A stretch of DNA of 6,159 nt from a virus (lineage: Duplodnaviria > Heunggongvirae > Uroviricota > Caudoviricetes): IMG/VR virus record IMGVR_UViG_2531839236_000025. One strand, given 5' to 3'. A program made the position numbers and the translations under genes. The notes under the pieces were generated by a model. It made no database searches. It had not been told where the DNA came from and saw nothing but the letters and a program-made list of their open reading frames with translations. Shown here piece by piece: positions 2,247 through 2,309 of the stretch (position 1 is its first letter; each line of letters opens with the position of its first letter).

Positions 2247-2258
2247 ATCAGCCTCCTG

Positions 2259-2284
2259 AAAATAAAAAAACCGCCGCAGCGGTT
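2259..2284 (-). terminator. weak intrinsic-terminator-like hairpin plus U-tract in the terL/protease intergenic region
   Basis: Minus-strand RNA reads AACCGC-UGCG-GCGGUU followed by UUUUUAUUUU. The GC stem is only 4 bp plus 2 A-U pairs, so strength is doubtful. It sits between the terL stop (2310) and the protease SD/start (2257-2244). Confidence 0.25.
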
Positions 2285-2309
2285 CATGATGGTTACAGTG
2301 TGAACAGGG

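Follow-up and report, generated by a model that had tools for sequence, protein, structure and literature searches.

In phage HK97, the head genes follow the order terS-terL-portal-protease-major capsid protein (MCP). In the tailed-phage DNA recorded as IMGVR_UViG_2531839236_000025, a stretch of 6,159 nucleotides (nt) that we analyzed as a whole and refer to as the window, the large terminase gene, terL, is followed by an open reading frame (ORF) for a prohead protease fused to an MCP (protease::MCP), and the short gap between them holds a hairpin and a U-run next to a ribosome-binding site (RBS). This locus raises the questions of where the portal gene is and what an element that resembles a terminator is doing in front of a capsid gene. 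We find that the portal gene lies just beyond the capsid ORF and one small gene, in a gene order that is shared by many relatives, and, on comparative sequence evidence, we propose with a probability of roughly 0.6 that the gap element is an intrinsic-terminator-type stem-loop and U-tract, placed 13-14 nt before a strong RBS, that would be read through by RNA polymerase modified by the antitermination protein Q.

A lambdoid prophage of Escherichia coli O157:H7 EDL933 matches the window at 99% identity, and at least 80% of the window is present in 1121 complete E. coli genomes. Stx (Shiga toxin)-converting phages, such as BP-4795, YYZ-2008, 1717, and the Stx2a_WGPS phages, are 95-98% identical to the window, and all of the head and packaging genes that concern us here lie on its minus strand. 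The initial annotation placed the terL stop at 2310 and the capsid ORF start at 2246. Both positions are borne out by the ORF ends and by RefSeq, in which the coding sequence (CDS) ends for terL and protease::MCP in the 99%-identical EDL933 prophage are the same as those of the window. The start codon is GTG 2246 in the window, and the homologous codon is ATG (MTLK...) in relatives. The interval from terL to the protease::MCP ORF is 63 nt only and contains no portal ORF.

The portal gene had been taken to lie elsewhere or to be absent, and the first of these holds, with an ATG at position 97 on the minus strand. When the sequence to the left of coordinate 1 was inspected by way of relatives, a portal CDS was found that overlaps the end of orf73, the small gene that follows protease::MCP. 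The first base of the portal CDS in the EDL933 prophage corresponds to window position 97 (minus strand), within the end of orf73, and the equivalent start base is also found in BP-4795, YYZ-2008, and vB_EcoS_phi330. The YYZ-2008 portal product matches the Pfam family Phage_portal with an E-value of 7e-81. The order HNH-terS-terL-protease::MCP-orf73-portal is identical in the Stx phages BP-4795, YYZ-2008, and vB_EcoS_phi330, and the terL/capsid junction is 96-100% identical in 93 phage records (100% in vB_EcoS_phi330). Thus, the portal gene does not lie between terL and the protease as it does in canonical HK97-like modules; it follows orf73.

Loci encoding relatives of the capsid ORF were drawn from genomes, one for each species, and from viral contigs, which were scanned with three different queries. 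The viral-contig query with the window capsid protein gave only relatives of at least 96% identity, and homologues from Marinobacter and Erwinia were then used for diversity. Among the 205 loci that contain the capsid N-terminus, terL lies upstream in 194 and a portal gene lies downstream in 194. The order terL-capsid-portal is kept in Enterobacter, Kluyvera, Citrobacter, Pantoea, Erwinia, and Rouxiella, and it recurs at 32-54% capsid identity in Marinobacter, Hydrocarboniphaga, Chelativorans, Snodgrassella, and a Caulobacteraceae genome, as well as, within the same range of identity, at a Mesorhizobium locus that fits the order on a contig ending before the portal. The order thus spans Enterobacterales and alpha- and betaproteobacteria. 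Phages that combine a related terL with a different head module, such as Burkholderia phage vB_PR2a, have the canonical terL-portal-protease-MCP order. The initial annotation had suggested either a mosaic junction or a non-canonical head gene order. The second suggestion is right in that the order differs from that of HK97, and the first is contradicted by the synteny of 194 of 205 loci. Nor is the order unusual, since a portal gene stands directly downstream of 43..264 in conserved synteny. Because the order is conserved across proteobacterial classes, we regard it as a long-established variant that bears no mosaic scar. Judged from this synteny, the gene order is an old, known variant of HK97-like head modules, and nothing is missing from the module.

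In its other features, the module is that of the HK97-like group, with an S78 protease and an HK97-fold MCP identified by Pfam and with adaptor, head closure, gp10-family, and tail-terminator genes annotated downstream in EDL933, BP-4795, and YYZ-2008. Its gene order and its high nucleotide identity to named members place it among the head modules of Stx phages and O157 prophages, a group that includes BP-4795 (Marienburgvirus), YYZ-2008, vB_EcoS_phi330 (Pankowvirus), phage 2851, and the O157:H7 prophages. There are no differences between this group and the window at the junction, and the hairpin is annotated in none of the group's records. The late-operon head end of an O157-type lambdoid prophage would accordingly be written HNH-terS-terL-(hairpin)-protease::MCP-(hairpin)-orf73-portal-adaptor.

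The portal region differs in its annotation from one relative to the next. It is given as one ORF of 861 amino acids in YYZ-2008 (6512-9097), as two ORFs of 454 and 461 amino acids with a 4-nt overlap in BP-4795 (6351-9097), as three ORFs in phi330 (2206-4948), and as 'frameshifted' in EDL933 (9513-12097). Pfam Phage_portal covers only residues ~54-382 of the product of this region, and the C-terminal ~410 amino acids are largely confined to the E. coli group, most relatives matching residues 1-450. A fusion, a programmed frameshift, or a distinct gene located downstream could each account for this C-terminal part.

The hairpin and U-run that had been noted at 2259-2284 on the coding strand are present, the stem-loop occupying 2285-2268 and the T-rich run extending to 2259. 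The coding-strand sequence of the gap is ...CATCATGAACCGC-TGCG-GCGGTTT TTTTATTTTC AGGAGG CTGAT GTG. The stem pairs G2285-C2279 with G2274-T2268 in 7 base pairs (bp), namely 4 G-C, 2 A-U, and 1 G-U, and the loop, TGCG (2278-2275; UGCG in RNA), is closed by a C-G pair. The first three T of TTTTTTTATTTT are able to pair with the base of the stem, and this tract makes up most of the 13-14-nt spacer between the last stem G and AGGAGG. The element thus has the sequence features of an intrinsic terminator, a GC-rich stem-loop on the transcribed strand with a U run directly 3' of it, and the 33-nt hairpin alone folds with an energy of -10.7 kcal/mol (z = -3.8) that was equalled by none of 200 shuffles. 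No sigma-70-like promoter site was found in the gap or the 3' end of terL, and the 63-nt gap contains no leader peptide ORF. A search of Rfam in E-value mode gave no match in the gap and only a weak, irrelevant match to a small nucleolar RNA elsewhere in the window. The initial annotation had also allowed for an attenuator. We reject this, together with a riboswitch leader, since neither the fold of the sequence by itself nor the RNAalifold consensus, which has one helix only, predicts an alternative or antiterminator helix, and the gap matches no known leader family.

Of 204 loci, 179 have a hairpin and T-run immediately 5' of the capsid RBS, corresponding to 61 of 83 distinct junctions. The loops are of 19 different kinds on a nearly invariant stem, many of them UNCG with a C-G closing pair, and the T-run consists of 6-8 T in nearly all relatives that bear the hairpin. 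The gap is 57-58 nt long in most Enterobacterales relatives, and in all of the Enterobacterales relatives its 3' end reads ACCCGC-NNNN-GCGGGT TTTTTCGTTTC(A/T)GGAGG...ATG. Compensatory stems occur: CCCGC/GCGGG becomes ACCGC/GCGGT in the E. coli group and Snodgrassella, GCCCG/CGGGC at a Candidatus Pantoea communis locus (L018), and GGGGCG/CGCCCC at locus L129. In an alignment of 33 sequences, 93.9% of the stem cells are paired, compared with 35-55% when the 3' partner is slid out of place, and both sides have changed at 3 of the 7 stem pairs. The covariation score is 0.182, versus 0.102 in shuffles, and was reached by 0 of 500 of them. The RNAalifold consensus contains the gap helix and no other. 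The MAFFT junction alignment puts the divergent hairpins of loci L018, L021, and L129 out of register, and these were scored as unpaired, so the pairing count is conservative. From this pattern of conservation, the stem-loop is very probably a real, selected RNA or DNA structure.

The hairpin keeps its place beside the capsid gene where the sequence around it has changed. At locus L015, 38 extra nt lie upstream and the hairpin is still beside the capsid RBS. The Candidatus Pantoea communis locus (L018, 4256-6000) carries a 1.75-kb insertion with small ORFs on both strands between terL and the hairpin, which looks like a moron insertion at the junction, and its stem differs (AAGCCCG-CGAT-CGGGCTT). 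In Hydrocarboniphaga effusa, which has two prophage copies on one contig (L021/L022, ~5960-5997), the 3' end of the terL coding sequence encloses the hairpin, GACCCCGC-TTCG-GCGGGGT, and the terL stop is 3 nt from the aligned capsid start and 9 nt from the capsid ATG. At locus L159, the hairpin loop has acquired an insertion or duplication (GACCCGCTCAGGCGCTGAGGGATCCCCATAAATCAGCGCTCAGGCGGGT) ~90 nt before the capsid start; by eye, it appears to lengthen the helix rather than destroy it.

The gap hairpin is one of several in its operon. A second hairpin (294-273) begins 15 nt after the capsid stop and ends 8 nt before the orf73 ATG, and the folding energy of a 51-nt segment that contains it is -21 kcal/mol (z = -2.45). 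Nearly all of 95 distinct relatives, including those that lack the 5' hairpin, likewise have a hairpin after the capsid stop, with many unrelated stems. In the EDL933 prophage, a near-twin of the gap element, AACCCGC-CGCGT-GCGGGTT TTTTATTATCAGGAGGCAGA ATG, precedes the major tail gene (L001 8026-8008, ~4 kb left of the window), and a further such cassette, AAAACCTGC-TGTG-GCAGGTTTT TTTTTGCCCGGAG...ATG, precedes the tape-measure gene (L001 6555-6576, ~5.5 kb left of the window). A hairpin, a T-run, and GGAG, with different stems, also stand before the major tail genes of relatives L006, L007, L009, L012, and L013. Almost all MCP, major-tail, and tape-measure cassettes have ~13 nt between the stem and GGAG. 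In the part of the EDL933 operon that begins with terL and ends with the tape-measure gene, every intergenic gap of at least 44 nt contains a stem-loop. The protease/MCP unit is thus bracketed, with a hairpin on its 5' side and a partner after the MCP stop, and a further hairpin lies before the major tail gene. Its presence before the tape-measure gene makes it less likely that the cassette is reserved for the most abundant proteins. The tail-cassette loop CGCGT is common to the EDL933 prophage and Burkholderia phage vB_PR2a.

Nor is a terminator-like element before a capsid gene unusual in phages of this kind, as the initial annotation had supposed, since elements occur at equivalent places in HK97 and lambda. 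The HK97 record (NC_002167) annotates a 'putative terminator' between the portal and protease genes, just 5' of the protease-MCP pair (3309-3335), another just after the MCP gene (5192-5213), and two more just upstream of (6692-6719) and just after (7443-7462) the major tail gene. The HK97 tail-gene hairpin, GAACCCGCC-AGAT-GGCGGGTT TTCTTTTTCCAGGAG...ATG, may be compared with the AACCCGC-CGCGT-GCGGGTT TTTTATTATCAGGAGG of the EDL933 prophage. Like the window, HK97 has a GC-rich stem-loop, a T-rich run, and an RBS directly 5' of its protease-MCP unit and has S78 protease and HK97-fold MCP families, and its late operon is Q-dependent, as that of the window's prophage is predicted to be. HK97 differs in that its portal gene lies 5' of the first hairpin, whereas that of the window follows the capsid cassette; its protease and MCP are separate genes, whereas those of the window form one ORF; and it has a hairpin after the major tail gene, where the corresponding gap in the window's prophage lineage is only 5 nt. 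By position, then, the window gap hairpin is the counterpart of HK97 3309-3335, with the portal gene on the other side of the bracketed protease-MCP unit.

In lambda, the hairpin at the D|E junction before capsid gene E reads AAAGGCCGC-CTGT-GCGGCTTT TTTTACGGGATTTTTTT ATG, U-run included (6097-6125), and a UUCG hairpin directly follows the E stop (7163-7180); neither is annotated in NC_001416. A simple terminator scan misses cases such as lambda D|E, in which the stem absorbs part of the T-run, and such a scan was hence not relied on. P22 has an annotated stem-loop after coat gene 5, and neither it nor the lambda hairpin has a recorded function. Lambda and P22 use Q-type late antitermination, as the window lineage probably does, but their head modules are unrelated or only distantly related to that of the window: in lambda, the protease, C, is separate and has Nu3 nested in it, and D serves as decoration protein, whereas P22 has a scaffolding protein. 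Burkholderia phage vB_PR2a has such hairpins after its MCP gene and before its major tail gene. Moron terminators, such as that of HK97 gp15 (8398-8422), likewise consist of a hairpin and U-run directly before the RBS of the next late gene; the window hairpin differs in that it comes with no extra gene or promoter and is conserved where no insertion exists. Papers on cluster O mycobacteriophages, SPP1, and epsilon34 either place terminators behind major structural genes, rather than in front of them, or contain nothing of relevance, and a full-text literature search, which covered sources other than the HK97/HK022 and corrected P22 genome papers, found no paper that discusses the function of these hairpins.

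Transcription of lambdoid late operons starts at pR' and is carried out by Q-modified polymerase. In the EDL933 prophage, BP-4795, and YYZ-2008, annotation and sequence outside the window place a Q-family antitermination gene, followed by a strong tR'-like hairpin that has 8 U, ahead of the late genes, as in lambda, where a strong terminator, tR', also follows Q. The lambda tR' is, however, the site of the Q decision, whereas the window element comes only after ~10 kb of the operon and is not known to receive regulatory input. Q-modified polymerase is resistant to terminators, Q narrowing and extending the RNA exit channel and so keeping terminator hairpins from acting (PMC9388147; bioRxiv 10.1101/651190). 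We propose that polymerase without Q, arising from spurious or read-in transcription in a lysogen, would stop at the gap hairpin, and that the strongly translated capsid gene would thereby be kept off until Q is produced. In lytic growth, polymerase that the prophage Q has modified at pR' should pass the hairpin, and read-through under these conditions is quite likely. Such read-through at the gap hairpin would remove the paradox of a terminator before a highly expressed gene. In the resulting mRNA, the gap hairpin and the capsid-3' hairpin would bracket the capsid message and mark the boundary of an mRNA segment, where they may impede RNA decay and leave the U-rich RBS region free of pairing.

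Several observations weigh against this proposal. Terminator-like sites are not significantly enriched in the window (8, versus 5.9 ± 2.3 in shuffles), the 76-nt gap segment as a whole has a z of -1.0, and the hairpin is short, with 7 bp and -10.7 kcal/mol; at the level of the whole window, the hairpin in this one sequence is indistinguishable from chance, and the real evidence for it is comparative. The covariation derives from few independent events, because the stem is mostly invariant. The hairpin is absent from ~20 distant junctions, mostly of the alphaproteobacterial type, where capsids are made all the same, so the hairpin is not essential to the module. In Hydrocarboniphaga, the hairpin has been kept and the U-run has decayed, which agrees better with a role as structural RNA than with termination. 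Incomplete read-through by Q-modified polymerase would mean that a terminator in this position reduces the dose of the very gene that is needed most, and the authors of the HK97 work reportedly suggested that the stem-loops have a role in mRNA stability.

A role at the level of RNA is the substance of one alternative, which we entertain tentatively: the element would be a post-transcriptional expression cassette in which termination is irrelevant, serving as the 5' boundary or stabilizer of a processed capsid mRNA and as an insulator that raises translation by keeping the U-rich leader, a binding site for ribosomal protein S1, and AGGAGG unpaired. It would account for the nearly fixed ~13-nt spacing from stem to GGAG, which the HK97 cassettes share, for the retention of the hairpin by the capsid RBS despite upstream change at L015 (+38 nt), L018 (+1.75 kb), and L021 (inside the terL end), for the L021 stem that outlasted its U-run, and for the near-universal 3' hairpin, which brackets the capsid ORF, is conserved even where the 5' one is missing, and has its parallel around lambda E. 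The 6-8 U strictly conserved right after the stem and the UNCG loops, on the other hand, are a signature of termination, and, together with the cassette before the low-copy tape-measure gene, which is not specific to abundant proteins, they favor termination or insulation; the ~13-nt spacing can also be explained by economy, with the RBS directly following the U-tract. To our knowledge, E. coli has no 5'-to-3' exonuclease, so an upstream hairpin shields the terL message and would not protect that of the capsid unless processing occurred exactly at the foot of the hairpin, and no such processing is known.

It is also conceivable, but unlikely, that the hairpin forms the 3' end of a separate product, either terminating and stabilizing the HNH-terS-terL message or releasing an Hfq-binding small RNA from the 3' end of terL. 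The anatomy is that of a small RNA or mRNA 3' end, and a short RNA has been mapped in the 5' untranslated region of the major head gene of Pseudomonas phage YuA (PMC10914365). The sequence upstream of the stem is not conserved across clades, however, Rfam has no match in the gap, terminase is needed in small amounts, and the position of the hairpin follows the downstream gene. A recombination or mosaic scar, in which the portal gene was lost or displaced and the hairpin is a regulated attenuator or incidental remnant, is very improbable. The order is indeed unlike those of HK97, lambda, and Burkholderia phages with a related terL, and the 1.75 kb of foreign DNA in L018 indicates that the site accepts insertions, but this reading is refuted for the window by the portal gene immediately downstream, by the conservation of the order across classes of Proteobacteria, and by the 96-100% identity of the junction in 93 phage records; neither an antiterminator helix nor a riboswitch or leader family gives it support. 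Least credible of all is a chance inverted repeat without function, which would fit the unremarkable number of terminator-like sites and the z of the gap but is in effect refuted by the comparative data, namely the variable loops on compensatory stems, the hairpin in 179 of 204 loci, and the parallel elements at the equivalent HK97 and lambda junctions.

Features of the window at and around the terL/protease::MCP junction. Positions are those of the window; aa, amino acids.
Feature	Position	Strand	Basis or remark
terL, large terminase, 553 aa	3971..2310	minus	Pfam TerL_ATPase and TerL_nuclease; so annotated in EDL933, BP-4795, YYZ-2008
terL stop TAA	2312-2310	minus	opens the intergenic gap
terL / protease::MCP gap, 63 nt	2247-2309	minus	ORF ends
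Stem-loop GAACCGC-TGCG-GCGGTTT	2285-2268	minus	terminator-like site in scan, folding, comparative conservation
U-rich tract TTTTTTTATTTT	2270-2259	minus	sequence; T-run conserved in relatives
Shine-Dalgarno AGGAGG	2257-2252	minus	5 nt before the GTG start; (A/T)GGAGG or GGAG at the same place in relatives
protease::MCP fusion ORF, 645 aa	2246..309	minus	Pfam Peptidase_S78 (48-152), Phage_capsid (386-635)
Second stem-loop GCGGGAGGC-GCTA-GCTTCCCGC, 9 bp, without U-run	294-273	minus	folding and relatives
orf73, 73 aa, function unassigned	264..43	minus	PHROG 829; position conserved in Enterobacterales relatives
Portal gene start, ATG 97, first 32 codons	97..1, exits left end of window	minus	translation and annotated relatives
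terS, small terminase	4531..3968	minus	Pfam Terminase_2
HNH endonuclease, upstream of terS	5186..4821	minus	Pfam HNH

The protease::MCP ORF matches PHROG 617 over its full length and consists of an N-terminal HK97-type S78 prohead protease, a coiled-coil or delta-like region, and an HK97-fold capsid domain; orf73 matched no Pfam family. An HNH gene upstream of terS is typical of HK97-like cos packaging modules, and the 289-nt non-coding gap between the HNH and terS genes (4532-4820) is likely a candidate cos region for this type of HNH endonuclease and terminase. A DUF3950 (YlcI/YnfO) gene in the 5228-5413 region lies on the strand opposite to the head genes. The last 134 nt of the window (6026-6159) do not align with O157 prophages that are otherwise 99% identical and are covered by matches to Stx1a phages and YYZ-2008, so that a mosaic boundary is indicated near 6025.

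The protease::MCP ORF also contains an in-frame ATG (1668-1670, minus strand) at residue 193 (MNIGEQIKSFENKRAAL...), with a Shine-Dalgarno-like AAGGA at 1681-1685. Among 19 diverse fusion ORFs, 17 have a start codon (15 ATG, 2 GTG) or a TTG or CTG codon at this spot, and most have an AAGGA/GGAGG-like motif, arising from a conserved K/E-G, 6-10 nt upstream of it. In Snodgrassella, the protease and MCP are separate ORFs that are split at this point. The sequence from this possible nested start resembles the beginning of a free-standing HK97-type capsid protein with its delta domain, and these observations suggest that the fusion and the free MCP may both be made, as with lambda C/Nu3.

When the nested start is considered with the recurrence of the cassette, a broader but doubtful possibility is that hairpin, U(13), and Shine-Dalgarno sequence make up a portable leader cassette with a post-transcriptional role before selected late genes, and that the protease-MCP block has been swapped as a unit. 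If this is true, HK97-like phages of Proteobacteria would place such a unit before the capsid, major tail, and tape-measure genes, segmenting a 20-kb late mRNA by stability and keeping strong RBSs open. Together with the nested start at ATG 1670, the cassette would set the capsid:protease:terminase ratio without a promoter, and the hairpin-bracketed protease-MCP unit would be the block that swapped places with the portal gene.

The main value of these results is one of correction: the window carries a standard, widespread head module of Stx phages and O157 prophages that is neither broken nor mosaic. Its gap hairpin is an unannotated member of a kind of element that is annotated in HK97, in a phage group that has already been sequenced and named. 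The unit of hairpin, U-run, and RBS recurs at equivalent junctions in phages whose proteins are 30-50% identical, and, because these prophages have Shiga toxin and effector genes within the same, probably Q-dependent, late transcript, the way in which internal terminators shape that transcript is of some practical interest.

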